From Eubacteriales bacterium (GTDB taxonomy: Bacteria; Bacillota; Clostridia; Oscillospirales; CAG-272), in NCBI GenBank assembly GCA_045580085.1, contig JAZNND010000014.1:9498-73497 (forward strand): 64,000 nucleotides of DNA. Reading direction: 5' to 3'. The position numbers and the translations under genes were made by a program. The notes below the pieces were generated by a model. It saw only the letters and a program-made list of their open reading frames with translations. It was not told where the DNA came from and searched no databases. Shown one piece after another: positions 39,937 to 64,000 of this stretch (position 1 is the first letter of the stretch; every line of letters starts with the position of its first letter).

Positions 39937-39962
39937 TCGTAAAGCAGAAAAGGAGAAACAGC

Positions 39963-42440
39963 ATGAAATTATCATTTTCCACCAACCGTTGGAAGGACAC
40001 CACCATGTCGGAATTCTTCGCCATGGCGAAGGAATACCGTTTTTCCGGCGTTGAAATTCACAGCATAGAGGACTTTGGAGAAAAGGAATGCTCCGCCTTG
40101 TATCATGAGGCGATGGCACTGAACCTTTCCATTGCCTGCCTTGATATGGGTGCCGATATCGGTGCCGCCGATGATACCGCCGCGAAGGAAGAGCTTTCGG
40201 CTTGCATTGCCGCCGCGCACAGATTGCATACCCCATACCTTCGTTTGCGTGCAGGCAAGGGCGAAGGCGCAGTAGAGAACAGCGAAAAATTCCTCACATA
40301 CGCCTTGGAAGAGGCACACAAAGCCGATCTTGTGCTTCTTATTGAGACGGTTGGCGCGTATGCCGATACGGGCGTTCTTGCGAATACGCTTCGCCGTTTT
40401 GCGGATGACTCTTTGGGTGCGCTTTGGGATGTTTACTATCCCTATACCGAAGCGGGTGAGAGTGCCGAAAAAACCATCCAGAACCTCGGTGCTGCCGTGA
40501 AGCACGTTCATATGAAGGATGCGGACGGCATGGATGAATTCCGCCCCGTGGGGGAAGGAAAGATGCCCCTTGCGGATTTTATGAACGCATTACGCTCTGT
40601 CAATTACGACGGATTTATTTCCGCCGAGTGGGATCCCGATTGGATGGAGGAGCTTGCGGATGCTTCTATCATCTTCCCTCATTTTGTAACCTACATGTCG
40701 CGGTATAAGGATCCTTCTCGCAATGTTGTGTCGCTGTATGAAAACAAGGCGAAAACGGGTAAGTTCGTTTGGAAAAAAGAAACGCTGATCGAAAAGACCT
40801 TCGGTCAGGTGCTTGATACCATGGTGGAGCTTTTTCCCGATCAATACGCTATCAAGTATACGACGCTTGACTACACGCGTACCTATGCCGAGTTCCGCGA
40901 CGACGTCGATACCTTCGCGCGCGCCCTTGTTTCACTCGGTGTGCGTGCGGGTAGCCATGTTGCACTTTGGGCAACCAACCTTCCCGAGTGGTACATTGCC
41001 TTTTGGGCGACCACCAAGATCGGTGCGGTTCTGGTTACCGTCAATACCGCTTACAAGATTCATGAAGTGGAATATCTTTTGCGTCAATCGGATACCCATA
41101 CGCTGATTCTCGAACAGGGATACCGTGATTCTCATTACGATGAGATTATCGCCGAGCTTTGCCCGGAGTTGGAAAATACCAAGCCGGGCGAACCGCTTCG
41201 TTCGCGCCGCTTGCCTTTCCTTCGCAATGTCATTACCATCGGCTATAAGCAAAAAGGGTGCCTTTCCTTTGATGAGACGGTTGCCCGCGCCGACCGTGTG
41301 CCTCAAGAAGAAGTCAATCGCATGGCGGCTGCGGTGGATATCCACGACGTTTGCAACATGCAATACACCTCCGGCACCACAGGTTTCCCCAAGGGCGTTA
41401 TGCTGACGCATTACAATGTTGTCAACAACGGCAAGTGCATCGGCGACCGTATGGATCTTTCTACCGCCGATCGGCTTATGATTCAAGTGCCTATGTTCCA
41501 CTGCTTCGGCATGGTGCTTGCCATGACCGCCTCCATGACACACGGCGTTACCATCTATCCCTTACCTTACTTCTCTCCGAAGCCTGCGCTCGCTTGCATT
41601 CATAACGAGCACATCACTGCTTTCCACGGTGTTCCTACCATGTTTATTGCTCTCTTGGAACATCCCGATTTCCCCAAGACCGATTTCTCGTATATGCGTA
41701 CGGGTATCATGGCGGGCTCACCTTGCCCTATTTCGGTTATGGAGGACGTTGTCAACAAGATGCACATGTCCGAGATTACCATCGTTTACGGGCAGACCGA
41801 GGCATCTCCCGGATGCACCATGAGTTCGACCGACGATCCGCTTGAGGTGCGTGTCGGTACCGTCGGCAGAAATCTGCCCGAGATCGAGTGCCGCATTGTA
41901 GATCCCGAGACGGGTGAAGAGCTCCCCGACAATGTAACGGGTGAGTTTGTAGCGCGCGGTTATAACATCATGAAGGGATATTATAAGATGCCCGAAGCAA
42001 CCTCTAAGGCAATCGATGCCGAAGGTTGGCTCCACACGGGCGACTTGGCTTGCCGCACCCCCGAAGGCAATTACCGTATTACGGGCCGCTTGAAGGATAT
42101 GATCATCCGCGGCGGCGAGAACATTTATCCCAAGGAGATCGAGGAATTTATTTATACCCATCCGAAGGTCAGCGATGTACAAGTCATCGGTGTGCCCGAC
42201 GAGCAATACGGCGAGGAAATCATGGCTTGCATCATTTTGAAAGAGGGCGAGAGCATGACCGAACAGGAAATGAAGGACTATGTGCTTGCGCATATGGCAA
42301 AGCATAAGGTGCCGAAATATATCGATTTTGTCGATGCCTTCCCGATGAATGCCGCAGGTAAGATTCTTAAGTATAAGATGCGTGAGGATGCCGTAGAAAA
42401 GCTTGGTTTGCATAAAGCTGCCAAGATCGTTACCGCGTAA
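39963..42440 (+). CDS. Acyl-CoA synthetase (ACS1, AMP-binding) with fused N-terminal AP_endonuc_2-type TIM barrel
   Basis: N-terminal 'LLIET', 'LWDVYYP', 'HVHMKD', 'SAEW'. C-terminal 'YTSGTTGFPKG', 'YGQTE', 'WLHTGDLA', 'RLKDMIIRGGENIYP', 'AAGKI'. Confidence 0.9.
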   Translation: MKLSFSTNRWKDTTMSEFFAMAKEYRFSGVEIHSIEDFGEKECSALYHEAMALNLSIACLDMGADIGAADDTAAKEELSACIAAAHRLHTPYLRLRAGKGEGAVENSEKFLTYALEEAHKADLVLLIETVGAYADTGVLANTLRRFADDSLGALWDVYYPYTEAGESAEKTIQNLGAAVKHVHMKDADGMDEFRPVGEGKMPLADFMNALRSVNYDGFISAEWDPDWMEELADASIIFPHFVTYMSRYKDPSRNVVSLYENKAKTGKFVWKKETLIEKTFGQVLDTMVELFPDQYAIKYTTLDYTRTYAEFRDDVDTFARALVSLGVRAGSHVALWATNLPEWYIAFWATTKIGAVLVTVNTAYKIHEVEYLLRQSDTHTLILEQGYRDSHYDEIIAELCPELENTKPGEPLRSRRLPFLRNVITIGYKQKGCLSFDETVARADRVPQEEVNRMAAAVDIHDVCNMQYTSGTTGFPKGVMLTHYNVVNNGKCIGDRMDLSTADRLMIQVPMFHCFGMVLAMTASMTHGVTIYPLPYFSPKPALACIHNEHITAFHGVPTMFIALLEHPDFPKTDFSYMRTGIMAGSPCPISVMEDVVNKMHMSEITIVYGQTEASPGCTMSSTDDPLEVRVGTVGRNLPEIECRIVDPETGEELPDNVTGEFVARGYNIMKGYYKMPEATSKAIDAEGWLHTGDLACRTPEGNYRITGRLKDMIIRGGENIYPKEIEEFIYTHPKVSDVQVIGVPDEQYGEEIMACIILKEGESMTEQEMKDYVLAHMAKHKVPKYIDFVDAFPMNAAGKILKYKMREDAVEKLGLHKAAKIVTA

Positions 42441-43467: not shown

Positions 43468-43722
43468 AAAAGGCTATGACGAAGACGGACGAAGACGAGT
43501 GCTTCCAGAGAGTCGGTGGCGGTGTGAATCCGACAGTTACCCCCTTCAGTTCCCATCCCTTCTGAGCCGAAGTCCCCAACGCATCTGCAAGTAGGGCCTT
43601 CCGTATGGCTGCGTAAAAGCACGGAGCTTGTTTGAGCTCGCAGAGAGGCACCTTTGGTGCAATTTGAGTGGTACCGCGGATAATTTATTACCCGTCTCAA
43701 AGAAATTTGAGACGGTTTTTTT
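43468..43722 (+). ncRNA. T-box riboswitch, predicted Ile specifier (AUC at 43555-43557)
   Basis: Stem I K-turn GGCTATGACGAAG...CTTCTGAGCC, CAGAGA and GGTGTGA distal motifs, T-box AATTTGAGTGGTACCGCG (43661-43678), terminator CCGTCTCAAA/TTTGAGACGG followed by T7. Confidence 0.9.
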
Positions 43723-43751
43723 ATTTAAGATTAAGAAAAGGAGAACGCATC

Positions 43752-46016
43752 ATGAAAAACACGGTAAATTCTTTGGCGGAGGTTGCGGCACGTATCCGCG
43801 AGATGCGTGAGATTTTAGGCTTCAGTACCGCAGAAATGGCAGAAAAGACGGAAGTCGAAAAAGAGCTTTACGAGGAATACGAAAAGGGTGAGACCGATCT
43901 TCCTTTTTCCTTTATTCATAAATGCACGTTGGCATTCGGCGTAGACATTGCGGACCTTTTGGAAGGTAACAGCGCAAAGCTTTCTTCCTATACCGTTACG
44001 CGCAAAGGAAAAGGTCAGTTGACAGCCAAGGAAAACGGCATTGAGATTTCCAATATGGCGCCCCGTTTCCGCAACAAGCTTGCCGAACCTTATTGGGTTC
44101 GTTATGAATATTCAGAGGAACTTCAAAACCGCCCCATTCATACCACCACCCACGGCGGTCAGGAGTTTGACCTCGTGATCAGCGGTTCTTTGAAGGTGCA
44201 GATCGGTGAGCATACTGTTGTTTTGGAGGAGGGGGACAGCATTTACTATGAAAGCGGTACTCCCCACGGCATGATCGCTGTCGGCGGCAAGGACTGCGTG
44301 TTCTGCGCTGTCGTTCTTCCCGACGAGGATGTGTCCGATGAAAAAGAGATCGAAAAGTCCATCGTTACTGCAGGGGCTAAGCGTGAGCTTTTGATCAACA
44401 AGTTCATCAAGTGCAAAGAAAACGAAGAGGGTGTTTTGACCGAGATTTCTTTCACGGATGACGATAAATACAATTTCGCCTTTGATACCGTTGACGCTAT
44501 CGCGGATAAATATCCCGATAAGCTTGCGATGCTCCACGTTGCCAACGATAAGTCCGAACGCCGCTTCACATACCGTGACATCAAGCGCGAGTCCAACCGT
44601 TGCGCCAATTATTTAAAGTCTCTCGGCATCGGCAAGGGAGACCGCGTGGTCGTTGTTCTGAAAAGACATTATGAGTTCTGGTTTGCGATTCTCGCGCTTC
44701 ATAAGCTCGGTGCTGTTGCCATCCCCGCAACCAACCAGCTTAAGGCGCATGACTTTGTTTACCGCTTTAAGTCCGCAGGCGTTAAAGCCATCCTTTGCAC
44801 CGCCACCGATAAGACTGCGGAAGAGGTCGATATCGCAGCTGCCGAATGCCCGACGCTTACGGCGAAGATCCTTGTGAACGGCGACCGTGAGGGCTGGCAT
44901 AATTTCGGCGAAGAGTATAAGCTTTACAGTACGCATTTCGAACGCACCGCCGACGCGGCATGCGGAAACGATCCTATGATCATGTTCTTTACCTCGGGTA
45001 CGACCGGTTATCCGAAAATCGCCATGCACAGCTATAAGTATGCCCTCGGTCATTTTCCGACGGCACGCTATTGGCATGACATCCGCCCCGAGGATTTACA
45101 CTTGACCATTTCGGAAACCGGTTGGGGCAAAGCCCTTTGGGGCAAGCTTTACGGACAGTGGATGTGTGAAGGTGCGGTTTTTGTCTACGACTTTGACCGC
45201 TTCAATGCTTCCGATATCCTTCCGATGTTCTCGAAATATCATATCACCACCTTCTGTGCGCCTCCCACCATGTACCGTATGCTCATCAAAGACGATCTTT
45301 CGGGATACGATCTTTCGAGCATTCGCCACGCAACCACCGCGGGCGAGGCACTCAATCCCGAGGTGTTCTATCAGTTTAAAAAGGCGACCGGGTTGACTAT
45401 CATGGAGGGCTTCGGACAGACAGAAACCACCCTCACCATCGGCAATTTGGTCGGCACCACGCCCAAGCCCGGCTCTATGGGTAAAGCGATGCCGCTTTAC
45501 GATATCGATATCGTGGATACCGACGGTAATCCCGTCGGCACGGGTGAAAACGGTGAGATCGTTGTTCGCACCGACAAGCGTGTTCCCCCCGGACTCTTCC
45601 TCGGTTATTACAACGATGAGGAGAAAACGCATGACGCATGGCACGACGGTATGTATCATACGGGCGACGTTGCTTGGAGAGACGAGGACGGCTTCTTCTG
45701 GTATGTCAGCCGCATCGATGACGTCATCAAGTCCTCCGGTTACCGCATCGGTCCGTTTGAGATCGAGAACGTCATCATGGAGCTGCCTTATGTGCTTGAA
45801 TGCGGTGTTTGCGCCGCGCCCGATGAGGTCAGAGGGCAAGTAGTCAAGGCTTGCATTGTGTTGACCAAGGGCACCGAAGGCACCGATGCACTCAAAAAAG
45901 AAATTCAAGAGTATGTAAAAACGCATACGGCACCGTATAAATATCCCCGTATCGTTGAATTCCGTACCGAGCTTCCCAAAACCATCAGCGGTAAAATCCA
46001 ACGCAATAAGCTCTAA
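43752..46016 (+). CDS. XRE-HTH/cupin/medium-chain acyl-CoA synthetase fusion (ACS2)
   Basis: N-terminal 'RIREMRE...EMAEKT', cupin 'THGGQEF...GDSIYY...PHGM', then 'FTSGTTGYPK', 'GFGQTE', 'YHTGD', 'KSSGYRIGPFEIE', 'SGKIQR'. Confidence 0.92.
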   Translation: MKNTVNSLAEVAARIREMREILGFSTAEMAEKTEVEKELYEEYEKGETDLPFSFIHKCTLAFGVDIADLLEGNSAKLSSYTVTRKGKGQLTAKENGIEISNMAPRFRNKLAEPYWVRYEYSEELQNRPIHTTTHGGQEFDLVISGSLKVQIGEHTVVLEEGDSIYYESGTPHGMIAVGGKDCVFCAVVLPDEDVSDEKEIEKSIVTAGAKRELLINKFIKCKENEEGVLTEISFTDDDKYNFAFDTVDAIADKYPDKLAMLHVANDKSERRFTYRDIKRESNRCANYLKSLGIGKGDRVVVVLKRHYEFWFAILALHKLGAVAIPATNQLKAHDFVYRFKSAGVKAILCTATDKTAEEVDIAAAECPTLTAKILVNGDREGWHNFGEEYKLYSTHFERTADAACGNDPMIMFFTSGTTGYPKIAMHSYKYALGHFPTARYWHDIRPEDLHLTISETGWGKALWGKLYGQWMCEGAVFVYDFDRFNASDILPMFSKYHITTFCAPPTMYRMLIKDDLSGYDLSSIRHATTAGEALNPEVFYQFKKATGLTIMEGFGQTETTLTIGNLVGTTPKPGSMGKAMPLYDIDIVDTDGNPVGTGENGEIVVRTDKRVPPGLFLGYYNDEEKTHDAWHDGMYHTGDVAWRDEDGFFWYVSRIDDVIKSSGYRIGPFEIENVIMELPYVLECGVCAAPDEVRGQVVKACIVLTKGTEGTDALKKEIQEYVKTHTAPYKYPRIVEFRTELPKTISGKIQRNKL

Positions 46017-46418: not shown

Positions 46419-48716
46419 ATGGAACAACAGATCACAGGTCTTGATCTCAAGATCAGGGAAATGGCATCCCGTATCCGCGCTTTGCGTGAGATCGAGGCAC
46501 TTTCCGTTGCTGACATGGCGAAAAAGACCAATGTCAGTGAGGCGGAATACTTAGCTTGTGAAAACGGCGAGAGCGATTTGAACTTTGCTTTCATCTACCG
46601 TTGCGCACTTGCGTTCAATGTGGACGTTACCGATATTATTGAAGGTACGAGCCCCAAGCTCGGTGCTTTCACTGTGACGAGAAGCGGAGAAGGGCAGCGC
46701 ATTGAGCAGGCGCATGGCATGGTTTATTATAACCTGGCACCTTCTTTCCGTAACCGTATTGCCGAGCCTCTTCTTGTACGCGCCGCATACAGCACTGATG
46801 CCGAGCATGCCGATATTGAGCTAACCACCCATGACGGGCAGGAGTGCGATATTGTTCTTAAAGGTTCTCTTAAGGTGCAGGTCGGTGAACATAAGGTCGT
46901 TCTTCACGAAGGTGACAGCATTTATTACGATTCGTCTACGCCGCACGGTATGATCGCCGCGGAGGGAGAGGACTGTCTCTTCTACGCCTTTGTGCTCAAT
47001 CCCTCGGGCGAACCTATTCCCGAGCTTGAGACTTCGACCAAGGCTTCCGTTGTGGATAAGCCTCGCAAGAAAGAGAGTAAAGAGCCTCGCGTATACGATA
47101 AATGGGTGGATGCCGAGGAGGATGAGAACGGTGTTCTCAAAAAGATCTCCTTCCGTAACGCCGAAAAATTCAATTTTGCTTTCGATATTGTTGATGTTCT
47201 TGCGAAAGAAAAGCCGGATAAGCTCGCCATGCTTCATCTTGACAGAGATAAGACCGAGCGCCGCTTTACCTTCCGTGATATCAAACGCGCTTCCAACCAG
47301 TGCGCGAACTATTTCAAGTCTCTCGGCATCAAAAAAGGCGACCGCGTCATGCTGGTGCTCAAACGTCACTATCAGTTCTGGTTTGCCATGCTTGGACTTA
47401 ACAAGCTTGGTGCCATTGTTATTCCCGCCACCAATCAGCTGAAATCTCATGACTTCAGCTACCGCTTCGGTGCCGCCGGTATCAGTGCCATTCTTTGCAC
47501 CTCGGATGCCGAAACGGTGAGCGAAGCTGAGATTGCGCTTGCCGAGTCTCCTTCCGTTGTTCACCGTATCATTGTCGGAGAAGCACGTGAGGGTTGGCGC
47601 AACTTTGACGATGAGTATACGCTTTACAGCACTCATTTCCACCGCACCGCAGAAAGTCCTTGCGGCGACGACTTGATGCTCATGTTCTTTACCTCGGGCA
47701 CCACGGGTTATCCCAAGATTGCCGCACACAATTATAAGTACGCGCTTGGGCATTTCTTAACCGCTAAGTATTGGCACGGTGTAAACCCCGAAGGGCTTCA
47801 CTTCACCATCTCGGATACCGGATGGGCAAAGGCAATGTGGGGTAAGCTTTACGGTCAGTGGATGGCAGAGGGCGCAACCTTTGTATATGACTTTGTCCGC
47901 TTCAGCGCGGCGGATATTCTTCCCTTGTTTGCTAAATATCATATCACTACTTTCTGTGCGCCTCCTACTATGTACCGTATGATGATCAAGCAAGATCTGA
48001 CGAAATACGATATGACTTCCGTAGAGCGCGCGACCACCGCGGGCGAGGCACTCAACCCCGAGGTATTCCGTCAGCTTGAAAAGCTCATGGGGCTTAAGAT
48101 CATGGAAGGCTTCGGTCAGTCCGAGTGCACGCTCATGATCGGTAATTTGCTCGGTGATTCGCATAAACTCGGCTCGATGGGTAAACCTGTTCCGCTTTAC
48201 GATGTGGATATCGTGGATCCCGACGGTAAGAGCGTCGGTGTCGGTGAAACGGGTGAGATCGTTGTACATACCGAAAACGGCGCACCTTGCGGTCTGTTCA
48301 CGGGCTACTATCTGGACGAAGAAAAAACGCGTGACGCATGGCACGACGGTCTTTATCACACGGGCGATACCGCGTGGAGAGACGAGGACGGATTCTATTG
48401 GTATGTCGGCCGTGTGGATGATGTCATCAAGTCCTCCGGTTACCGCATCGGTCCGTTTGAGATCGAGAATGTTATCATGGAGTTGCCTTATGTTCTTGAG
48501 TGCGGCATTTCCGCGGCTCCCGATCCTGTCAGAGGTCAGGTTGTCAAGGCAAGCATTGTTTTGACCAAGGGAACGGAAGGCACGGAAGAGCTGAAAAAAG
48601 AAATCCAAGAGTACGTCAAGCAAAAGACAGCACCTTACAAATATCCCAGAATCGTTGTATTCCGTGATGAATTGCCCAAGACCACCAGCGGCAAGATCAT
48701 CCGCAACAAGCTTTGA
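46419..48716 (+). CDS. XRE-HTH/cupin/medium-chain acyl-CoA synthetase fusion (ACS3), paralog of ACS2
   Basis: Same domain order and motifs as 43752-46016. Confidence 0.92.
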   Translation: MEQQITGLDLKIREMASRIRALREIEALSVADMAKKTNVSEAEYLACENGESDLNFAFIYRCALAFNVDVTDIIEGTSPKLGAFTVTRSGEGQRIEQAHGMVYYNLAPSFRNRIAEPLLVRAAYSTDAEHADIELTTHDGQECDIVLKGSLKVQVGEHKVVLHEGDSIYYDSSTPHGMIAAEGEDCLFYAFVLNPSGEPIPELETSTKASVVDKPRKKESKEPRVYDKWVDAEEDENGVLKKISFRNAEKFNFAFDIVDVLAKEKPDKLAMLHLDRDKTERRFTFRDIKRASNQCANYFKSLGIKKGDRVMLVLKRHYQFWFAMLGLNKLGAIVIPATNQLKSHDFSYRFGAAGISAILCTSDAETVSEAEIALAESPSVVHRIIVGEAREGWRNFDDEYTLYSTHFHRTAESPCGDDLMLMFFTSGTTGYPKIAAHNYKYALGHFLTAKYWHGVNPEGLHFTISDTGWAKAMWGKLYGQWMAEGATFVYDFVRFSAADILPLFAKYHITTFCAPPTMYRMMIKQDLTKYDMTSVERATTAGEALNPEVFRQLEKLMGLKIMEGFGQSECTLMIGNLLGDSHKLGSMGKPVPLYDVDIVDPDGKSVGVGETGEIVVHTENGAPCGLFTGYYLDEEKTRDAWHDGLYHTGDTAWRDEDGFYWYVGRVDDVIKSSGYRIGPFEIENVIMELPYVLECGISAAPDPVRGQVVKASIVLTKGTEGTEELKKEIQEYVKQKTAPYKYPRIVVFRDELPKTTSGKIIRNKL

Positions 48717-49378
48717 TGAATATGAAATACGAACCTAAACGAATTACACTTTTTGCAGGGCATTACGGCAGTGGAAAAACCAACATCGCCGTAAACTATG
48801 CTTTGCAATTGGCGAAAAACGGCATGCCCGTAACCATCGCCGACCTTGATATCGTCAATCCTTATTTCCGCACCAAAGACAGTGCCGCAGAACTTGAGGC
48901 GGCAGGTGTTCGCCTCATTTCCTCTGCCTATGCAAACTCCAATGTCGATTTGCCCGCCTTGCCGGCTGAGCTGTATGCTTTGACGGAGGACAAAAGCCGT
49001 TACGCCGTGTTTGACGTTGGCGGCGACGACAGAGGCGCACTGGCACTTGGCAGATACGCACCCGCCATCAAGGAGGAAGGGAAGTACGAAATGATTTTCG
49101 TTGCCAACTTCTATCGCCCCTTGACGCGAAACGCCGAAGAGGCACTTGAGGTGATGCGTGAGATTGAGGCGGCGGGCGGTATCCCCTTTACGGGAATCGT
49201 TCATAACTCTAACGTCGGTCCCGAAACGACTCCCGATGATATTCGCGCCAAAAGCGCGGAAGCGGAAAAACTATCCGCGATGGCGGCTTTGCCCATTCTC
49301 TTCACCGCGGCGGAAAGCACGGTGGCAAAGGGCATGGACAACACGTTGCCGCTTGATTTGCAAAAGAAAATTTTTTAA
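48716..49378 (+). CDS. P-loop ATP-binding protein (MinD/ParA/CobQ-like) at the head of the oxidoreductase genes
   Basis: 'GHYGSGKTN', 'DLDIVNPYFR', 'DVGGD'. TGATG stop/start overlap with ACS3. Confidence 0.8.
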   Translation: MNMKYEPKRITLFAGHYGSGKTNIAVNYALQLAKNGMPVTIADLDIVNPYFRTKDSAAELEAAGVRLISSAYANSNVDLPALPAELYALTEDKSRYAVFDVGGDDRGALALGRYAPAIKEEGKYEMIFVANFYRPLTRNAEEALEVMREIEAAGGIPFTGIVHNSNVGPETTPDDIRAKSAEAEKLSAMAALPILFTAAESTVAKGMDNTLPLDLQKKIF

Positions 49379-54531: not shown

Positions 54532-55449
54532 TTGCCGATTCGTATTCCCAATGAATTGCCCGCTACCCATATTCTGACCGAAGAGAATATCTTCGTTATG
54601 ACCGAAACGCGTGCGCAAACGCAGGACATCCGTCCGCTTGAGATCCTTCTTCTCAATCTCATGCCCACCAAAATCGTGACCGAGACACAGCTTTCGCGCT
54701 TACTTGGTAACACCCCTCTTCAAGTGGAGCTGACACTTCTTCATACCAAGACGCATCAGTCCAAAAACACTTCCGAACAGCATCTTTTGACCTTTTATAA
54801 GACGTTTGATGAGATCAAAAATCGCAATTTTGACGGTCTCGTGATCACGGGCGCACCTGTCGAAACACTGCCTTTTGAGGAAGTGGATTATTGGGAAGAG
54901 CTTTGCGAGATTATGGAATGGAGCAAAACCCACGTGCATTCGACCTTCCATATCTGTTGGGGGGCGCAAGCGGCTTTGTATTACCATTACGGTATTCCGA
55001 AATATCCCTTGGATGCTAAGATGTTCGGTGTGTTTGAACATACGCTCGCACATAGAAAATCCATGCTGTTCCGCGGTTTTGACGATTCTTTCTTCGTTCC
55101 TCACTCCCGTCATACCGAGGTGAGGGAAGAGGATATCGCCAAGTGTGACGAGCTCGAGATTCTTTCCGTTTCTCCCAAAGCCGGTGTTTATGCCGTGGTC
55201 TCCAAGGATCGGAAACAGGTGTTTATCACCGGTCACTCTGAGTACGATCCCGAAACGCTTGCTAAGGAGTATTTTCGCGACATCTCTCAAGGAAAAGAAA
55301 TCGCTGTCCCCGAGAATTATTTTCCGAACAATAACCCGGAAATGCCACCCCATGTTCGTTGGCGCGCACATGCCAACCTGCTTTATTCCAACTGGTTGAA
55401 TTACTATGTATACCAGACGACACCCTATGATTTAACCGATCTCGGATGA
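54532..55449 (+). CDS. metA: Homoserine O-acyltransferase MetA family, probably acetyl-CoA-specific
   Basis: 'LNLMPTK', 'ICWGAQA', 'GHSEYD'. The Glu in 'TGAPVE' is the acetyl-specific residue in this family, consistent with the adjacent metY. Confidence 0.92.
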
Positions 55450-55472
55450 GAAAAAATACATCATTTCGTAAC

Positions 55473-55502
55473 AAAAACCGCTGTCTCTGACGGCGGTTTT
55501 TT
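55473..55502 (+). terminator. Terminator after metA
   Basis: AAAAACCGCTGTC-TCT-GACGGCGGTTTTTT. Confidence 0.8.
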
Positions 55503-55731
55503 AATTTTTTGTAAATTTTCAGAACACAAGAAAAGGAAAAAACAGGGCAGAAAGCCGTAAAATGTGTGGCAAAAAGCACAATAACTGTCCATATTTTTGA
55601 ACATTTCGACAAAAATGCTTAATAATTTCAAAAAAAGGTTGATTTTCTAAATAGAATGATTATAATATATATTAGATATTTCTCCCCTAATGACATTTTG
55701 ACATAAGAATATGAAAGGATATTACATAACT

Positions 55732-58700
55732 ATGAAATTTGGCAAAAGACTTTTGTCTTTGTTGCTTTGCTTGGTTTGCCTTGCTTCCACGCTGCTTGTC
55801 GCTTTGCCCGCGGAGGCAGCCGAGGAACCTCTTTCCGCTTCGCAAACAAGCACGCAAGGCTATACCAAGAAAAAAGTGGTATCGGTGCTTTACGATACGT
55901 CAGGTTCCATGCAGGCTGAGCAACGTGCGGAATACGCTCGCTACGCCTCTCAGACCTTGATGGCGATGCTCGGCTCCGAGGATAAGCTTTTCTTCATGCC
56001 GATGCACCAAAGAAGGAATGTCGGTTCCGCTGTTGCCATCGACCAGTCCAACTATAACAAAGCAGGCGTTTACGAAGAAGTCGTTTTGACCGATCCGAAC
56101 GGCCGCGAGGCGGCAATCTCCGATGCCTTGAACAATATTATGTTCTCGCCGATGCCGAACGGCGGCGATACGCCCGTGAGCAGTATCGAGTGGGCATTAC
56201 AGCATTTGCTTGACGCCGGAATGAAAAAGACTGACGAGATCAAAGCCGGCGAAGAGGGCGATACCGAATATTTCCTTGTGATTTTGACGGACGGTGCCTT
56301 TGAAGATGAAACCAATCCGGACCGAGTCGCTTCCATGGTTTCGCGCTATGTAAAGCCTGCCGATTATGACTCGTACCGTTGCATCTATCTCGGGTTCAGT
56401 TCCGGTGCCGTTGATTTGACCGGAACCGATTTTGATACCGAAAACGGCAATGTAACAACGCGAAAAGCGGAAACGCCTGCGGACGTTATCAAGAGTATGC
56501 AAGACGTTGCCAACCTTATTTCCGGCAGATATTCCATCGAATCCGCACGTTTCAGCCGTTCGGGCAACACGGTTACGGTAGATCTTGACGGCGTGGGCTA
56601 CGGCTTGCGCTCGGTTTCCATGTTGCTGCAAAACAGCGATGCCAAGCTCTTGCGCTCCTATTACGGCGGTGAAGAGCTCACCGTCACCCAGCGTGCCTCT
56701 TTCTCGGCGGACGGATTGCCGACCATGAAGGGCGGATCCTCTGCCGTTCTCAAAAGACGGGATGCCGATATGAATTTCTCCCAAGGCACTTTGACGCTTG
56801 AGTTCGACGCTTTGACGGATAAGGATTTGGAGGGGCTTTCCATCCTGCTTGAACCCGCGCTTTCTTTGCGCGCGTACGCAACGCACAAAGGCGAAATCGT
56901 CGATGCCGCCGCGATCACGAAACTAAAAGCGGGCGATGAGCTGGTGATCGGATATGAACTTTTGGAAGAGGGAAGCAATGAGGGAGTTACCATCCCGGGA
57001 ACACCTTTGGCGGAAATCACCTATAACAACGAAAAGTACGAGGTGGGAAAACCCATTCCGCTGGTAGAGGGAAAGCTGGCGATTTCGTTGACCGTCAGCA
57101 TTTTGAACGGCTCTTATACGCTGTATACCTCGCTGTTCTGTAATGTACGAGCCAATCCCGACAGCTTCCGCATAGAAGCCGAAAAACCGGTTTTGGAGCC
57201 CAACGCGTCGCATAAAAGCAAAACGCTGTTTACCATCACTGACGGTGAGAAGATCACGACCAATCTCGCGCTTTCGACCTATGATTACGATGTTGCCGTG
57301 ACGATGGCGGACGGTACACCTCTTCCGTCCTCCGTTTATTCGGTTGCTCCCGAGAACGGTAAGATCGCGGTTTCTTTGAACTTAGATCCCGAGGAATATG
57401 AGTACGGTGTCTTTTCCATCTACGTGTTGGTGTATAAGGACGGAGCACCTCGCGATTGCACTGCGAGCGTGCCTTACTATCCAGCCGACGTGTTGCTTTC
57501 TCCCGTAGGGGACAATAGTCTTTCCATGACGCTTTACGGACTTTCGCAAAACGCACAAATCGGGAAAAAACTGATCTTCGCGCTCTCCGCCGAGGGGCGG
57601 CCGCTTCCGTTCGGTGAGGAGGTTTTGAAATACAAGGTCACCTTGAACGGCGCGGATGTCACCGCCGCATGCTTGGTGGAAGGAAATAACTTAAGCTTCT
57701 TGCCGACGGCGGAAACGCTCGGAAGCTTCGGCACGGCAACGGGCGAAGGTAAGCTTCAGATCAAGGTTTACTCAGATATCGCCACCTACATCAATGCTTC
57801 GGCAGAGGCGAGCATCACCTTGACCGAAACTGTTTTCGAGGTTGTTCCCGTCAGCAAAGACAAAGATCCCATTGACCGTTTTGCGCTTGGAAAAAACCAA
57901 TCGTCGGTTCGCTTTGCGATCTACAGAGACGGCGCACCCTTAAGCGAGGAAGAGTTAAAATACGCTTTGGATAACGGACTCTTCACGGTAGACGAGTCTG
58001 CTTACGGCGCAAACGGATTTACCCGTTTTATCACCCCGATCGGCGGTGAGACTACGGTGGAGACGGTGGACGGTGTTCCCGTGATCCGCATCCGTATCGT
58101 TCCCGATCAGTGGGGTATCTTCCGTTTCTTCACCTCCATGTTCATCCGTGGCGGGGATAAAACGGTGAATGTAAAGTATCAGTCCGATTCGGGTGAAAAG
58201 CTCGGTCAGGACATCTACACCATCGCACCCGCGGGTGCTTTCGGGTATATTCTTCGCATTGCCATTTTGATCGCGATCATTTATTTGATCATCTTTGCTA
58301 TCGAGAGCTTGCGTTGCATTCGCTTTGAAAAGGGAAGCTTCGTGAAAATGAAGATCGAAACGCAAGGCAAGAGCAAGGGTAAAGTCGCACGTGTGCAAAG
58401 CATCAAACACGTGGGCGGATTCCCGAAAAATTTGATGCTCGGACGCTTGGTGCCGATCATCGGTTTGAAGAGACGCACGCAAGAAACCTCCTTTGAAGGC
58501 AATCGCGTGGATGCTGAAAAATACGCAATGACGCTTCCCGCAAGCGTAAAGATGCAGATCCGTCCGCAGTCGGATGAAAAAACCGTCAGCTGCATGAATG
58601 AGATCAGAACCAAGGTGCGCGAGGCGCATCGCACGGGCAGTGTCAGCATTGCCAAGATTTCCGAAGCGCATGCTCAGCTCTTCTGGGAAAGCGAGTCTCT

Positions 58701-58809
58701 TGATATTAAGACCATCAAGACCGCGCAACTGAAATCCGGTATCTTCATCGTCTCGAAGGAATCCGACGATTTCATTGAAGTTATTTTCTACGTGCCCTTT
58801 GGCAGATAA
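55732..58809 (+). CDS. Large membrane-anchored vWA-domain protein
   Basis: Signal peptide and MIDAS motif 'YDTSGSM...GDTP...ILTDG'. Beta-rich stalk, TM 'ILRIAILIAIIYLIIFAI', then a ~165-aa cytoplasmic tail. Confidence 0.85.
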   Translation: MKFGKRLLSLLLCLVCLASTLLVALPAEAAEEPLSASQTSTQGYTKKKVVSVLYDTSGSMQAEQRAEYARYASQTLMAMLGSEDKLFFMPMHQRRNVGSAVAIDQSNYNKAGVYEEVVLTDPNGREAAISDALNNIMFSPMPNGGDTPVSSIEWALQHLLDAGMKKTDEIKAGEEGDTEYFLVILTDGAFEDETNPDRVASMVSRYVKPADYDSYRCIYLGFSSGAVDLTGTDFDTENGNVTTRKAETPADVIKSMQDVANLISGRYSIESARFSRSGNTVTVDLDGVGYGLRSVSMLLQNSDAKLLRSYYGGEELTVTQRASFSADGLPTMKGGSSAVLKRRDADMNFSQGTLTLEFDALTDKDLEGLSILLEPALSLRAYATHKGEIVDAAAITKLKAGDELVIGYELLEEGSNEGVTIPGTPLAEITYNNEKYEVGKPIPLVEGKLAISLTVSILNGSYTLYTSLFCNVRANPDSFRIEAEKPVLEPNASHKSKTLFTITDGEKITTNLALSTYDYDVAVTMADGTPLPSSVYSVAPENGKIAVSLNLDPEEYEYGVFSIYVLVYKDGAPRDCTASVPYYPADVLLSPVGDNSLSMTLYGLSQNAQIGKKLIFALSAEGRPLPFGEEVLKYKVTLNGADVTAACLVEGNNLSFLPTAETLGSFGTATGEGKLQIKVYSDIATYINASAEASITLTETVFEVVPVSKDKDPIDRFALGKNQSSVRFAIYRDGAPLSEEELKYALDNGLFTVDESAYGANGFTRFITPIGGETTVETVDGVPVIRIRIVPDQWGIFRFFTSMFIRGGDKTVNVKYQSDSGEKLGQDIYTIAPAGAFGYILRIAILIAIIYLIIFAIESLRCIRFEKGSFVKMKIETQGKSKGKVARVQSIKHVGGFPKNLMLGRLVPIIGLKRRTQETSFEGNRVDAEKYAMTLPASVKMQIRPQSDEKTVSCMNEIRTKVREAHRTGSVSIAKISEAHAQLFWESESLDIKTIKTAQLKSGIFIVSKESDDFIEVIFYVPFGR

Positions 58810-58873
58810 AAAACGGTAGTGCTGCCGCGCCTTGCGGCGGCTCTGCCCTCCATTCTCCGAAAGGAAAAATATT

Positions 58874-61800
58874 ATGAAAAGCATACTTTTGATCGGTGTC
58901 GGCGGAACCGGCAGTGCCGCCGTCGATATCCTCTATCAAAAAATCAAAGAATTCGGCAATCAGACCGATAACCACATTTCCGCCGTTGTGTTCGATACCG
59001 ATGTCGGCAGTGTGACGACCATTCGCTCCGCTGAGGCTGTCAGCATGGCGGATCCCGCTTCGGTCGGAACCATTTGCGACCGTATCGGCAAAGAATTTTT
59101 GCGCGAGTGGTTCCCTTGCGATAAAACGGCGGTCCGTTCGCAAGAGATGGTGCGCGGTGCCTCCCAATGGCGTAAAAAGTCCTTCCTTGCCTTTCTCAAT
59201 CTCATGAATAAGCAGGAAGCGCGTACCGCCTTCCACCGTGCCCTTGATTCCGTGGCAATTGCGGAACCCGGTGCGGCATGCGAGATCTATGTCATCGCAT
59301 CCATTGCGGGCGGCACGGGCTCGGGATCCTTTATTCCGATCTCGCTTTATGCGCGCCGCTATATCCGCGAGTTGGGCAAAGAGCCCATCGTCAGCGCGAT
59401 GATCGCGTGCCCCGATATTTATGCCGAAAGTCAAACTCCCGAAAACCGCATCAAGATCTATGCCAACGCATATGCTATCTTAAGAGAGCTGAATGCCATC
59501 AACTTAGTCACCAATAACGACTATAACCGCGTATGCCTTGACAATTATCTTGAGAAAAAAGCACCCGTCCGTTTCCGCATCGGTCACCCCGATGAACCCA
59601 ATGTCGGCGTCCTTTTCGATGCCTCGGACGAGCGTTTCTGGACGCCCGATGCCGCCCCCTTCTCGCAGGTCTTTATCCTCGATAAGATTCCGGGCGTGCA
59701 TTCGGTACATGCGCATGAAATCGTGCTTGCCAACTCTCTTTATACCATTCTTTGCACCGATATCGGTGCGGCGATGGACAGTGAAGCATCCAACCACGTG
59801 GTTCTTCACTCCCAAAACAACGGCGGCAACGCGATCTATGCAGGCATTTCCACCGCCCAGCTTTGCTTCCCCGCGGACAGTATTTTGAACTATTTGGCAC
59901 ACAAAAAAGCCATTGCCGCGTGTGAGGGCGAATGGCTGACGCTCCATAACGCGACCGAGGAGCGTGTGCATGAAGAAGAGCTCCGCGCAAAGGAAATGCG
60001 CCGTCAGTTCTTTATGAAGGATGGCGATTACGCGAAGTTTTTCCTTGCCGCCTTGAAGGCGGAAGAGGGCAATGCCACCAGCAGTGTTGCCTCTTTGGTG
60101 GAAAGATGTACCTATCGCACCGATAGTGAAGGCAATAAATTCAGCCTTATCGAAGAATATTTCGAGTCCATGATGGAAGAGCTTGCCGCGCGCATTGAAC
60201 CGTACGACAAGCAGAAAGATGAAATCGAAAGCCTGTCTGTGGTGGAGAAGCCCGGTCTTTTCGGCGCAAACGAAGCTAAGACAAAAGTGCTTAATATGGC
60301 GGATGAGATCAATTACGAACTTCGCTCCTATTTTGCAACTTGCGTGCGTTCGGTTTGCGATTCCGCTACCGGTCTTGCCGAGGCTATGCTGACCTTTGAC
60401 GAGCGCAAGGATAAACGCGCCAACCGCAAGCTTTCCATTGTGGAAAACGTCTTGATGCGCGACGGTAAATACATTCACCCCGTTGCCGCAGAGACACAGC
60501 TTTGCCGTTTGAAGCTTTTGCTTCACGAGTTCCTTGAAGTGAACAGATCCTCTCTTTGGAAGGAACTTAAGACGGGCGAGGCGGGTGCTGTGCCGACTTC
60601 TTTGCTTTCTATGCGTGAGACTCCTTCGATTGAGGACAAGAGCGTTAACGAGAGAAAGAGCGCGTATTGCAAGATGGCGGATGGCCGCCTTTCGGGCATT
60701 CTTTTGCAAAGAGAAGATTATATGAAACAGCGTACCTGTCCGCACAGTGACAGCGTATATCTCCGCGCCGACGGCGTTTCCGCCTTGAACCGTATCCGTT
60801 CCGCCGCGGAAAAGCAAATTCAAACCAAGGTCCTTGAGGAGATCGATAAGAGACTCAATGATCTTATCGCGCAATACCGCGCCTTCTTTACGCGCTTTGC
60901 CGCCGCCAAGACCGATTTTGAAGAAGCCGTCAAAACCGCGCACAGACGTGACGCAGGCAGAGCAGACAGCGTGCTCAACATTTATTCCACCGCGGCAGAT
61001 AAAGATGCCATCATGAAACAAGTTTTGGGCGATTCGGGTGCCGATAGCTTGGAAGATGTTTTGGAAGCGGATCATATCGCCGGTGAAAGCATTTTCGAGA
61101 CCGCGTATATTTCCGCCGCTATGGAACGCAACAACGAAGGCAGACCTTCCCTCGGCAATGTGTACCGTAATCTCTTTGAGAATATGGTTGCTTCCTATCG
61201 CAAGACCATCGCCAAATCAACGGCATATCAGTCCATCGGAAGCTGTAACGTCATCGATGCCATTATTCGCTCCGCGGGTAAACAGGCGGAGACAAACGAT
61301 GTCAAAGCGACCGTACGCGCTATGTTCGCCGCCGCCATGGAGATCGCGAAGCCTGCTTTGCAGGTGGATATGACCGAAAAGGGCAGTGACGTAATCAAGC
61401 CTTCGGACGTTACCGTTGTGATGATGTCTTATGAGACAGCCAAGTACATAAAATCCCGTGCCGATCTCTTCGGTATCAAAGTGACCGACGGTGTCAGTGA
61501 GGAAAAGATCGTTAAGAGCTGTGCCGAAGAATTCGTGCATATTTATTCGGGCAACTACCAAGCAAGAATCGCTCTTGTCCGCGGTATTCCCGATCAGATC
61601 CTTTACATCACGGGCGAAAAGATGGATATCACGCCCTTGCGCATTCCCAAGTTTGACGAGATGAGCGCGAATCCTCTGTATTTCAAGAACTATCAAAAGG
61701 CACTTTCCAATCTGCGCCGTTTTGATACCGATATGTGGAATCCTCATCTCGGCAACGATCTTTACAAGCGCGGTTTCCTTCCTTATATGAATGCCGACAT

Positions 61801-62656
61801 GGAAAAGATCTGCGATGAAAAGCTCGTCAAAGCCATGCTTTACGGTATCGTGAAGAAAAAGATTATTCTTAAAAAAGGAAAGAGCGCGTCTTATACTGCC
61901 TTCCGCTATTTGAATGAGGTAGGCAATGAGAGCATCATTTTGACCGCAAACGGCGACCACGTCAATATGAAAAACGTAGCCGAGCTCTTTACTTGGTTGC
62001 GCAATGAAGATATCCTGATTGAAAAATGGAGCGAAGCGTTTGACGGTGAAATTACCGTGGCAAAGGGCAACCTTTCCAACATCGTCAGCGAAAGCGACGT
62101 CGGACGCGTCAGCGGCGAGATCACCCGTTCCTCCTTTATCAAGACCTTGCGTTCCGGCTTGTTTGCCGGCAATATGGCAAAGGATTCGAAGGGCATCGGT
62201 ATCATTGAGTTTGCATATGCGGTCAAGGCGAGCGAAGAGGCTGCACGAGACTGTGATGATGCGGACAGAATGCTTAAGATCACAAGCGATCTCTTCAAAG
62301 AAATCTGCCGCCATAAGACCACCAATCCCGAGCACTATGTGGTGATCTATAAGGCACAGCTTGATGCGCTCTATGAAGCGTATGCTTCTTCCTATGCCGT
62401 GCAAAAGGAAAAATCCAGCAAAGAACCTTACTTCAACCGTGTTGTTGAGTGGGTGAACAGCATTGGTGCATATTGCCAAGTGCAAGAAGTGCGCGGCATC
62501 AATCCCGACGGCAGTATCAACTATACCGCTTATGAAGCATCTGCCGACGTGCTCAAGCTCTTGAAATACGATCCCGCAACCGCATCGGATCTTGGTGCGG
62601 AAGAGGCAAGCGGCGACGGCGAACTTTACGACGACGACACGACCGATACCGAATAA
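58874..62656 (+). CDS. Tubulin/FtsZ-like GTPase (Tubulin_2-type) with a long helical C-terminal region
   Basis: T1 loop 'LIGVGGTG', 'FDTD', tubulin signature 'SIAGGTGSG', 'ANAYAILREL'. Confidence 0.88.
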   Translation: MKSILLIGVGGTGSAAVDILYQKIKEFGNQTDNHISAVVFDTDVGSVTTIRSAEAVSMADPASVGTICDRIGKEFLREWFPCDKTAVRSQEMVRGASQWRKKSFLAFLNLMNKQEARTAFHRALDSVAIAEPGAACEIYVIASIAGGTGSGSFIPISLYARRYIRELGKEPIVSAMIACPDIYAESQTPENRIKIYANAYAILRELNAINLVTNNDYNRVCLDNYLEKKAPVRFRIGHPDEPNVGVLFDASDERFWTPDAAPFSQVFILDKIPGVHSVHAHEIVLANSLYTILCTDIGAAMDSEASNHVVLHSQNNGGNAIYAGISTAQLCFPADSILNYLAHKKAIAACEGEWLTLHNATEERVHEEELRAKEMRRQFFMKDGDYAKFFLAALKAEEGNATSSVASLVERCTYRTDSEGNKFSLIEEYFESMMEELAARIEPYDKQKDEIESLSVVEKPGLFGANEAKTKVLNMADEINYELRSYFATCVRSVCDSATGLAEAMLTFDERKDKRANRKLSIVENVLMRDGKYIHPVAAETQLCRLKLLLHEFLEVNRSSLWKELKTGEAGAVPTSLLSMRETPSIEDKSVNERKSAYCKMADGRLSGILLQREDYMKQRTCPHSDSVYLRADGVSALNRIRSAAEKQIQTKVLEEIDKRLNDLIAQYRAFFTRFAAAKTDFEEAVKTAHRRDAGRADSVLNIYSTAADKDAIMKQVLGDSGADSLEDVLEADHIAGESIFETAYISAAMERNNEGRPSLGNVYRNLFENMVASYRKTIAKSTAYQSIGSCNVIDAIIRSAGKQAETNDVKATVRAMFAAAMEIAKPALQVDMTEKGSDVIKPSDVTVVMMSYETAKYIKSRADLFGIKVTDGVSEEKIVKSCAEEFVHIYSGNYQARIALVRGIPDQILYITGEKMDITPLRIPKFDEMSANPLYFKNYQKALSNLRRFDTDMWNPHLGNDLYKRGFLPYMNADMEKICDEKLVKAMLYGIVKKKIILKKGKSASYTAFRYLNEVGNESIILTANGDHVNMKNVAELFTWLRNEDILIEKWSEAFDGEITVAKGNLSNIVSESDVGRVSGEITRSSFIKTLRSGLFAGNMAKDSKGIGIIEFAYAVKASEEAARDCDDADRMLKITSDLFKEICRHKTTNPEHYVVIYKAQLDALYEAYASSYAVQKEKSSKEPYFNRVVEWVNSIGAYCQVQEVRGINPDGSINYTAYEASADVLKLLKYDPATASDLGAEEASGDGELYDDDTTDTE

Positions 62657-62677
62657 TATAATAAGGAGAGTTTTCTT

Positions 62678-64000
62678 GTGAAAAGAGTACTCGTCATCGG
62701 TGTCGGCGGTATGGGGGTTCGCGCGCTTGAGCTGTTTAAGCAGTTATGTATGCGTGATCCGCCAAGCGAGGCGTCTTGCGTGGAAACGTTGGTGCTTGAT
62801 GGCGATCCTACCGATTTGGAACGGGTTCGCCATGCCACCGTTTTGCCGCTTTCCGCTTCCCAAAATCTCGGTGAAGCTTGCGACGCGCTCGGACAAGAGA
62901 TGTTAGAAGGATGGTTTCCTTACCGTGAACCTTCTCTTCGCGCTTGCGACTTACGCCGTTCTTTTGGGCTATGGCGAAAAAAAGCATTGTTTGATTTTCT
63001 CTTTGCCATGCAAAACGGCGCAAACCGTGCGCAAGTTGATGCCGTGTTAGATCGCCTTTGCGAGGGCGATGCGGACGGCAAGGCAAGATATGAGATTTGT
63101 ACCGTAGCTTCTTTGGCGGGCGGTACGGGCTCGGGAGCTTTTCTTCCCGTGACGCTTTATGTAAAAAAATGTCTTGCGCAAAGGGGCAAAAAAGACGTTC
63201 ATGCTTATGCGGCACTCGCGCTCCCGGAGATTTATGCGGAATATGCGCTTGGTAGTATGCAAAATCAGTTTTACGCCAACGCTTACGCCGCTTTGACCGA
63301 GCTTAACATCATGACACGGACCGCGCATGGTGAAAAAACGCCCGCGTTTCGTTTGGGAAAAAGCAAAGATCCGTTTGTCGGTTTGCTGTTCGACAGTGAG
63401 GATGCTTCGTTTCGAACACCCTCCGCCGCCCCTTTCTCTTGTGTGTTTTTGTTAGACAAAGCAGCCTCTCGCGCCATTGATCTTCACGCGAGAAGCTTAA
63501 GTAATTTTCTCTATTCCTTCTTTTGTACTCCCATATTCCACTCCTTTGAGAGTGAGCTTTCCAACCGTTCTTCGCGCTTTGCGCGCCGTATTCCGTTTGT
63601 AAAAATCGCTGCGGCGATTGCATATGATCCGGCGGACGGTCTTATGGAAAAACTTTCCCATGTGATTGCGGGCGAAGAGCTTGAAAGCGTGTTCTCTCAA
63701 GAGGATGGGATGGCGGGGGAGAAATGTGAATCTCTTTTGCGCGAATACTTCGGTGACTTTGCCAAGAAAGCGGAAAAGATTCTCCCCGATTTGAGCGCGG
63801 TGAGGGATAAGCTTTGTGCCTTGCCCGTTTGCCGTGCGTACCGCTTATTTGATTCCCACCGCGCAAAAGCCGAAAAAAATGAGCAGGTGGCGGATCGGTA
63901 TCGGGAATGCGTGGATACCGTAGACAGGTATTACCGCATATTTACCGAGCTTCTGTCCGAACATGCGCGAGTACTTGTAAAAGAAATGCTCCCGCATGAT
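62678..64000 (+). CDS. Second tubulin/FtsZ-like protein, divergent paralog; 3' end outside window
   Basis: RBS AAGGAG and GTG at 62678. Frame open for 441 codons to the window end: 'VIGVGGMG', 'GWFPY', 'SLAGGTGSG', 'ANAYAALTEL'. Absent from the ORF track because it has no stop codon in the window. Confidence 0.85.
   Translation, partial: MKRVLVIGVGGMGVRALELFKQLCMRDPPSEASCVETLVLDGDPTDLERVRHATVLPLSASQNLGEACDALGQEMLEGWFPYREPSLRACDLRRSFGLWRKKALFDFLFAMQNGANRAQVDAVLDRLCEGDADGKARYEICTVASLAGGTGSGAFLPVTLYVKKCLAQRGKKDVHAYAALALPEIYAEYALGSMQNQFYANAYAALTELNIMTRTAHGEKTPAFRLGKSKDPFVGLLFDSEDASFRTPSAAPFSCVFLLDKAASRAIDLHARSLSNFLYSFFCTPIFHSFESELSNRSSRFARRIPFVKIAAAIAYDPADGLMEKLSHVIAGEELESVFSQEDGMAGEKCESLLREYFGDFAKKAEKILPDLSAVRDKLCALPVCRAYRLFDSHRAKAEKNEQVADRYRECVDTVDRYYRIFTELLSEHARVLVKEMLPHD

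Follow-up and report, generated by a model that had tools for sequence, protein, structure and literature searches.

Within the tubulin superfamily, no branch is more divergent than the proteins of the FtsZl1/Tubulin_2 family. Here we describe such proteins in the genome (G000) of an Eubacteriales bacterium of the Clostridia, where the end of a 64,000-nt stretch of contig C14 (JAZNND010000014.1, positions 9498-73497; hereafter the window, whose coordinates are used unless another locus is named) opens into six plus-strand genes that are one intact transcription unit and run on in the contig past the window end. In order, they encode a membrane protein with a vWA domain, three tubulin-like GTPases (TubL-A, TubL-B and TubL-C), a 689-aa protein with a transmembrane hairpin and an 1891-aa transmembrane protein with a transglutaminase-like module. 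Membership of the operon in the FtsZl1/Tubulin_2-vWA systems that Makarova and Koonin described in 2010 is established, and it is a form, specific to one Clostridia family, of a known bacterial system that was never characterised. Tentatively, with a probability of roughly 0.4, analogy with other membrane-associated operons points to an outside-in device in which the vWA ectodomain would control GTP-dependent assembly of the TubL proteins at the membrane, a transglutaminase-like thiol enzyme would be the output and the accessory task would be surveillance of the envelope or of invaders.

An earlier note on this DNA, made from the letters alone, had flagged a vWA gene and two tandem tubulin-like GTPase genes, and the open reading frame listing and translation place all three on the plus strand. 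The second GTPase gene, TubL-B, is real (Tubulin_2 E 7e-21), and its reading frame, which the note feared might be disrupted beyond the window, is an undisrupted 857-aa frame in the contig. The tandem pair itself has to be amended to three paralogs in a six-gene operon. Inspection of the downstream genes showed that the operon continues and that the picture drawn earlier was incomplete, with TubL-C and two large membrane proteins still to follow.

The six-gene transcription unit

55711..58809, plus strand: vWA membrane protein, 1032 aa (1025 aa from ATG 55732)
58832..62656, plus strand: TubL-A, giant FtsZl1/Tubulin_2 GTPase, 1260 aa from the likely start, ATG 58874, or 1274 aa from TTG
62678..64000, ending at L005:9749, plus strand: TubL-B, short divergent paralog, 857 aa, first 441 codons inside the window
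L005:9809-13669, beyond the window, plus strand: TubL-C, third paralog, 1286 aa
L005:13803-15872, beyond the window, plus strand: transmembrane-hairpin protein, 689 aa
L007:76-5751, beyond the window, plus strand: giant transmembrane, zinc-ribbon and transglutaminase-like protein, 1891 aa

The genes are all co-directional and separated, in order, by gaps of 22, 21, 59, 133 and 3 nt, the part from TubL-B onward lying at positions 72175-86550 of contig C14.

Sequences of the TubL GTPases

All three paralogs lie far above the cut-off of 27 bits for Pfam PF13809 (Tubulin_2), with 126.6 bits for TubL-A, 75.2 for TubL-B and 114.3 for TubL-C, and TubL-C also reaches PF00091 (34.8 bits, cut-off 33). 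TubL-A, described earlier as a protein of about 1260 aa with tubulin motifs, does carry both GVGGTG and GGTGSG and matches Tubulin_2 at E 1.8e-36. It shares 41% identity with TubL-C over 1243 columns and 28% with TubL-B over 679 columns. The T1 loop reads GVGGTGS in TubL-A and TubL-C, with G8, G10, G11, T12, G13 and S14 invariant in an alignment of 48 TubL sequences; in TubL-B it reads GVGGMGV, and G8, G10 and G13 are retained over 55 sequences. The T4 loop, AGGTGSG, is found in all three paralogs and is invariant in the 48 aligned sequences, as is N198. In the alignment of all types (n = 55), the invariant positions are G8, G10, G13, R100, G149, G151, P180, N198, E205, P262 and P333. A candidate T7 loop, LFDASD, keeps D249 and D252 in at least 90% of the 48 sequences and stands at a strand end in the structural model.

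TubL-A is laid out as an FtsZ-like core (residues 1 to about 350), a linker (about 360-660), a C-terminal region (about 660-1170) and an acidic tail. Conservation along the TubL proteins is high over residues 1-360, low over 360-660, a stretch that is variable and rich in helix-forming residues, and high again over 660-1170; the C-terminal third holds the invariant MWNPH (954-958) and E1121, E1122, D1126, C1127 and D1128 (n = 48). Acidic low-complexity C-terminal tails are present in TubL-A and TubL-C and missing from TubL-B. In its length and in the N-terminal position of the core, TubL fits the architecture of FtsZl1 proteins, made up of an FtsZ-like domain at the N terminus, a coiled coil and a helical C-terminal domain. 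The homologue search returned 312 proteins at E<=1e-5; among the 120 matches listed, all are of 1235-1320 aa and carry PF13809, and the few named ones are a 'hypothetical protein' from Clostridia or Ruminococcaceae metagenome bins.

Comparison with FtsZ at the level of sequence is weak. Alignment of TubL with FtsZ by hhalign gave a probability of 3% from one sequence and of 15% in a local run, which is credible only at T1, the DTD motif and T4, and searches of the PDB with TubL sequences found nothing significant, FtsZ and CetZ appearing in one search only at E 0.29-9. The available part of the 2010 description (PMC2875224) likewise reports weak sequence comparison with FtsZ beyond T4. A canonical FtsZ is also encoded elsewhere in the genome, from which it follows that the TubL proteins are not the divisome.

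A structural model of TubL-A

The fold was approached through an AlphaFold2 model of TubL-A residues 1-420, the sole TubL stretch folded, which was built from 55 sequences and reached a mean pLDDT of 86.1 and a pTM of 0.75. Foldseek against the PDB gave it 343 matches at E<=0.001 (best E 5.1e-7), and the targets among the matches listed are all FtsZ or CetZ, bearing out the tubulin-type fold on which the earlier note had depended. The top rows have 299-322 aligned columns on chains of 296-334 residues, with a TM-score on the target of 0.41-0.47. The best structural matches (among them 5mn8, 2r6r, 4b45 and 4b46; E 5e-7 to 1e-5, probability 1.00) have the T1 and T4 loops in common with TubL; however, identity to them is 10-20%, the TM-scores are 0.33-0.47, and TubL carries large insertions in the stretch from T1 to T4, besides an extension of about 900 residues. 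We read the model as an FtsZ-like core with both domains, complete although rich in inserts; that the C-terminal subdomain is covered is judged from the alignment column counts and from four strands that follow a long helix (189-214). Whereas the alignment to FtsZ in the available part of PMC2875224 reached only helix H5, the model aligns over almost whole FtsZ chains. The model suggests presence of the whole two-domain core, which bears on the question, raised in 2010, whether FtsZl1 proteins can form filaments.

The vWA protein

The protein encoded directly upstream of TubL-A begins with a signal peptide, followed by a vWA domain (about 55-215) with a metal-ion-dependent adhesion site (MIDAS), a beta-rich stalk that extends to about residue 843, a transmembrane helix (844-868) and a basic cytoplasmic tail of 164 aa. 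The earlier description of a secreted MIDAS-vWA protein with stalk, membrane anchor and tail agrees with the signal-like N-terminus, the DTSGS motif at 62-66, the transmembrane segment at about 844-868 and the tail. The start chosen in that note, 55732, is the second ATG of the gene (M8), and the signal peptide begins there.

In an alignment of 24 relatives, residues D62, S64, S66, T154 and D194 of the MIDAS do not vary. The Pfam cut-offs are passed by orthologues (VWA with 24.7 bits in G123, VWA_2 with 27.6 bits in G004), and among the 24 relatives VWA_2 is matched in 5 and VWA in 2 at E<=0.01. The relatives also have matches to Big_13 (3/24) and Invasin_D3 (1/24). The vWA profile found no match in the PDB. 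The position of the vWA gene directly upstream of TubL recurs in eight related cassettes and in a Bacillus record, both described below.

The two large membrane proteins

The 689-aa protein has a transmembrane hairpin at about 498-552, no domain recognisable by Pfam and no annotated neighbour in the protein atlas; its family has 86 representatives at E<=0.001 among 1.84 billion. It is not related to TubL, and comparison of the four cassette families (vWA, TubL, 689-aa and giant protein) found no common domain.

The giant 1891-aa protein has four clear transmembrane helices and one candidate, all within residues 1-292 and with loops rich in K and E. Farther along, a four-cysteine ribbon (C1181, C1184, C1203, C1206) and a triad of C1691, H1717 and D1732, with Cys, His and Asp in the conserved order, are kept without exception in 29 sequences. 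The solved transglutaminase-like structure 9crn_A is matched by profile positions 1457-1797 at E 2.4e-30, and the triad aligns; no paper on this structure entry was found in the literature searched. Pfam PF01841 (Transglut_core) is reached by the orthologue in G123 (32.6 bits), scores 21.5 bits in G003 and is precomputed for 5 of the 78 giant-protein homologues listed. The transglutaminase-like module is the only predicted enzyme of the operon besides the GTPases. Hydropathy and the positive-inside heuristic, applied to loops rich in K and R, predict a cytoplasmic location for the 1600-aa part of the giant protein and for the two soluble parts of the 689-aa protein.

In a language-model search the centre of the giant protein came out near helicases of the DEAD/Helicase_C/MZB kind (score 0.89). 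This lead found no support: Pfam found nothing on the fragments at E<=10, PF09369 occurred in 0 of 21 genomes including this one, and a Walker A motif is missing.

The transglutaminase-like module also occurs apart from the cassette. A stand-alone paralog is encoded in the same genome (G000:C55:36673-37182, minus strand; a 348-aa frame that matches the profile of the giant protein at E 4.9e-19), such separate forms, 346-530 aa long, are common across the phylum sample, and a 415-aa transglutaminase-like open reading frame lies directly upstream of the cassette of genome G614 (G614:C54, joined L061+L062 23530-24777, minus strand), where it matches giant-protein residues 1555-1811.

Relation to known systems

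The earlier note had named Tubulin_2/FtsZl1 families that occur with linked vWA genes, and the GTPases here are such members with a linked vWA gene, as in the available part of PMC2875224. Like the operons described in it, the present predicted operon joins GTPases far above the PF13809 cut-off with a MIDAS-vWA protein that is secreted or membrane-bound and with lineage-specific transmembrane proteins, and a canonical FtsZ lies elsewhere. It differs from them in being without an OmpA-like protein, a Ser/Thr kinase and a divergent GTPase, in having three tandem paralogs, and in its fixed partners, the 689-aa transmembrane-hairpin protein and a transmembrane transglutaminase-like protein of 1.7-1.9 kaa. 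The word 'transglutaminase' has 0 occurrences in PMC2875224; its additional files 5 and 6 are lists of the partners in operons, and relatives of the two large membrane proteins might already be among them. In the literature searched, the FtsZl1/Tubulin_2 family is the subject of the 2010 description alone, apart from mentions in passing, and no paper besides PMC7159879 was found that joins tubulin-like, vWA and transglutaminase-like genes.

That paper describes GAP1-N2 GTPase-centric systems (Kaur et al. 2020, PMC7159879), which, in the part of it available, resemble the operon in being firmicute clusters with two tubulin-domain proteins that have helical C-terminal extensions, in an extracellular vWA domain on a transmembrane protein, in a predicted membrane-proximal assembly and in a patchy distribution. 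Here, however, there is one vWA gene and not two, and the cluster has the transglutaminase-like giant protein. The P-loop GTPases of the GAP1/DO type and the fibronectin type III (FNIII) repeat protein, which define those systems, are missing: the six proteins are without a Walker A motif and match no GTPase family of that kind in Pfam or NCBIfam, and Pfam gave no fn3 in them, nor YtkA for the YtkA fusion.

A further parallel is the MoxR-vWA-YebA operon (Zhang and Aravind 2012), which, in the accessible text of PMC3495828, likewise combines vWA, an NTPase and a multi-transmembrane protein with a cytoplasmic transglutaminase-like domain and is read as a membrane-proximal processing system. By comparison, the NTPase here is a tubulin-like GTPase rather than a MoxR AAA+ ATPase (the six proteins have neither an AAA+ match nor a Walker A motif) and the vWA protein is exported; and whereas YebA has eight transmembrane helices with the transglutaminase-like domain in the loop between the seventh and the eighth, the domain here is C-terminal, after about five transmembrane helices and 1300 residues.

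Distribution and evolution of the cassette

Among 150 other genomes of the same Clostridia family, 7 have TubL-A matches, and in 6 of these a vWA protein, TubL, a transmembrane protein of about 640-760 aa and the giant protein follow in the same order; the seventh, G051, has a TubL-like gene in another context and without the cassette. In the genus, TubL is matched in 2 of 60 other genomes, both with the full cassette. Together, the four families are found in the same order in eight genomes (G017, G063, G002, G003, G004, G123, G585 and G614). Across the phylum, 400 other genomes hold relatives only of the transglutaminase-like module of the giant protein (50 genomes, all at profile positions >=1418), and Tubulin_2 itself matched 13 of the same 400, 9 of them above cut-off. 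A related-locus search of genome contigs with a single protein gave no relative. PHROGs and NCBIfam returned nothing informative for the cassette proteins.

The number of TubL copies is one in four of the related cassettes, two in the other four and three here, so that duplication is lineage-specific and optional. In the tree of the TubL core, single-copy and multi-copy cassettes separate with support 94/94, and the two G585 copies are sisters (100/100), a lineage-specific duplication; the inner forks of this tree are mostly unresolved, and long branches make placements unsafe. Branch lengths of the B type are 2.6-5.2 against about 0.2 for the A type. In G017 the second TubL, which is of the B type (L020:10612-13857), has a degenerate T1 loop (GLGKDGS) and a degenerate T4 loop (ASCT-DYGSG), and is probably unable to bind GTP, to judge from these motifs.

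Alpha/beta tubulin and BtubA/B are tandem paralogs of which one can be catalytically degenerate. The operon differs from them in that TubL copy number is optional and duplication lineage-specific. The heteropolymer that the earlier note had suggested on their model is weakened as a requirement, given that 4 of the 8 related cassettes have a single TubL and that the B type of G017 lacks T1 and T4.

The flanks of the cassette differ among genomes, except in G585, which has the same sbcC/sbcD/AI-2E side. Recent horizontal transfer was considered and is unsupported, the sbcCD site being common to G585 and to this genome.

Two database records carry related genes. MT836542.1 (1-9794), a 9.8-kb scaffold from human faeces filed as 'UNVERIFIED: Bacteriophage sp.', contains a vWA gene and a TubL gene whose product is 72% identical to that of G002; it is unannotated in its record and may be bacterial DNA. 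NZ_CP093325.1 (1868637-1888229), a 5.5-Mb Bacillus replicon filed as 'plasmid p1', carries neighbouring vWA and TubL genes, a pair of the single-copy type, and among the best 14 of 20 BLAST rows at this locus none is to the two large membrane proteins.

Proposed mechanism and alternative readings

The set of a vWA protein, an NTPase and a multi-transmembrane transglutaminase-like protein parallels the MoxR-vWA-YebA operon, and on this ground we propose a thiol-enzyme device gated by GTP-dependent assembly, in which a tubulin-like GTPase would take the part of the AAA+ ATPase. In such a device, the vWA ectodomain would bind a ligand through its metal site and the signal would pass through the transmembrane helix and the tail to the cytoplasmic face. 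There, TubL proteins could assemble in a GTP-dependent manner, the conservative A/C type as the core subunit and the fast-evolving B type as a modulator, and the two membrane proteins might hold the assembly at the membrane. Finally, the assembly would position or activate the transglutaminase-like enzyme, which could cleave, cross-link or deamidate a protein target near the membrane. The sparse distribution of the cassette points to an accessory response system, for surveillance of the envelope or of invaders, and not to a housekeeping cytoskeleton.

Several observations weigh against this proposal. Each of its steps is one that we infer, including GTP binding, polymerisation, the contacts among components and the substrate of the thiol enzyme. 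The Foldseek TM-scores are modest (0.41-0.47 on the target), and LFDASD could not be assigned as the T7-type catalytic loop, since hhalign against FtsZ is reliable only through T4. Two of the domains fall short of their Pfam cut-offs in this genome, the vWA protein with VWA at E 0.007 and 17 bits (cut-off 23.8) and the giant protein with PF01841 at 15.7 bits (cut-off 23). The true output of the system could lie in the central 1100 residues of the giant protein or in the 689-aa protein, in which no domain is recognised. A role against invaders would sit uneasily with PADLOC-DB 2.0, which has 0 families for five of the six proteins and one low-complexity match (E 0.035) for the giant protein, with searches of 72,556 plasmid and 50,697 phage records that gave distant partial matches only (2 and 1 records, respectively), and with flanks that are housekeeping genes, without a defence-island or mobile-element context here or at the related loci. 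Moreover, divergence of the cassette between G585 and this genome (33-49%) is like that of the flanks (39-51%); together with the shared site, this means that the patchiness may reflect loss and not mobility.

Two broader readings deserve attention, the first of which is rather unlikely. It holds that the operon encodes a constitutive cytoskeleton for membrane remodelling or vesicle formation, in which TubL filaments shape the membrane, the vWA and transmembrane proteins anchor them and the transglutaminase-like domain cross-links them for stability. Remodelling by FtsZl1-vWA operons was proposed by Makarova and Koonin (in the part of PMC2875224 available), and the proposal gains from the Tubulin_2 family membership, from the FtsZ-like two-domain core in the model, from partners that are all membrane proteins and from the canonical FtsZ elsewhere, which leaves TubL outside the divisome. 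However, it would be odd for a basic function in cell biology to turn up in just 2 of 60 other congeners and 7 of 150 other genomes of the family, the published OmpA, kinase and GTPase partners are not found, and an exported, stalked MIDAS ligand-binding domain would be superfluous for internal remodelling.

The second broader reading, which we also regard as doubtful, is that of a dedicated anti-phage or conflict system akin to the tubulin/vWA systems of Kaur, Burroughs, Iyer and Aravind, in which vWA detects the invader, TubL assembly sets the threshold and the thiol peptidase is the effector, through abortive infection or cleavage of a target. It could account for the patchy distribution and for the fast-evolving B-type paralogs (2.6-5.2 against about 0.2); firmicute conflict systems with tubulin and vWA domains are described in the accessible part of PMC7159879, and a related cassette fragment is filed as the 'UNVERIFIED Bacteriophage sp.' scaffold. 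On the other side stand the absence of a PADLOC match, of a GAP1/P-loop GTPase (none of the six proteins has a Walker A motif) and of FNIII by Pfam, the single vWA gene, and flanks without defence or mobile genes whose synteny is kept with G585.

A bolder and quite improbable reading is a module of tubulin and tubulin-modifying enzyme, in which the membrane-tethered transglutaminase-like enzyme would act on the TubL proteins themselves. It might trim the acidic disordered tails of TubL-A and TubL-C or cross-link protofilaments, so that the vWA ligand would switch a GTP-driven polymer on or off through covalent modification. Among eukaryotes, vasohibins are an example of an enzyme of this kind. 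For the tubulin code of eukaryotes, removal of tubulin tags by transglutaminase-like peptidases has been proposed or demonstrated, according to the accessible text of PMC3495828. If true, this reading would give bacteria a counterpart of that code and would add a new kind of outside-in signalling across the membrane, with a cytoskeletal polymer as its basis.

Also improbable is a surface organelle for adhesion or anchoring, in which the vWA/Ig-like stalk would act as an adhesin towards ligands of the host or matrix, clustered and anchored by the cytoplasmic proteins, and the transglutaminase-like enzyme would attach or process it: the intact MIDAS, the Big_13 (3/24) and Invasin_D3 (1/24) domains of relatives and an Actinomyces transglutaminase that was proposed to join a surface filament protein with the envelope and whose loss released the protein (in the available part of PMC13622651), speak for it, but the transglutaminase-like domain is predicted by heuristic to lie in the cytoplasm, on the wrong side of the membrane, the need of an adhesin for up to three giant GTPases would be left unexplained, and no sortase motif or cell-wall anchor was seen in the vWA protein.

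Should the outside-in proposal hold, with the vWA ectodomain in control of assembly, the operon would be a bacterial analogue of integrin-to-cytoskeleton coupling; the labels 'integrin-like sensor' and 'conflict system' that the earlier note attached to it are at present inference. The cassette is a compact set of four conserved components with a catalytic handle, C1691, and nature supplies variants with one, two or three GTPase paralogs, one of them with seemingly dead GTP loops.

Flanks and neighbouring genes

Upstream, the operon borders on a metA-like gene (Pfam HTS, E 1.5e-145), preceded by a Cys/Met-PLP gene, an aminotransferase gene and pyruvate:ferredoxin oxidoreductase genes; downstream lie sbcC-like and sbcD-like genes on the opposite strand. 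Two features fall between the metA-like and the vWA genes:

55473..55501, plus strand: terminator-like hairpin, 13-bp stem and T run, 3' of the metA-like gene, at the upstream edge of the operon
55639..55666, plus strand: sigma-70-like promoter candidate, TTGATT / 16 nt spacer / TATAAT, 10/12, a consensus match only, in the AT-rich gap 5' of the vWA gene

Promoter-like sites are not above chance (4 found against a shuffle mean of 3.2). The AT-rich gap has a GC content of 0.43 over 55000-55999, and elsewhere the GC content of the operon equals that of its flanks.

Farther upstream in the window are three plus-strand genes for adenylate-forming (AMP-binding) enzymes (39933-42440, 43668-46016 and 46419-48716) with unusual N-terminal fusions, one to a xylose-isomerase-like TIM barrel and two to a helix-turn-helix and a cupin; LeuA-like, amidohydrolase and GH38 genes are their neighbours. 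Between the last of the three and the pyruvate:ferredoxin oxidoreductase genes, a 221-aa open reading frame (48713-49378, plus strand) encodes a CbiA/ParA-like P-loop protein.

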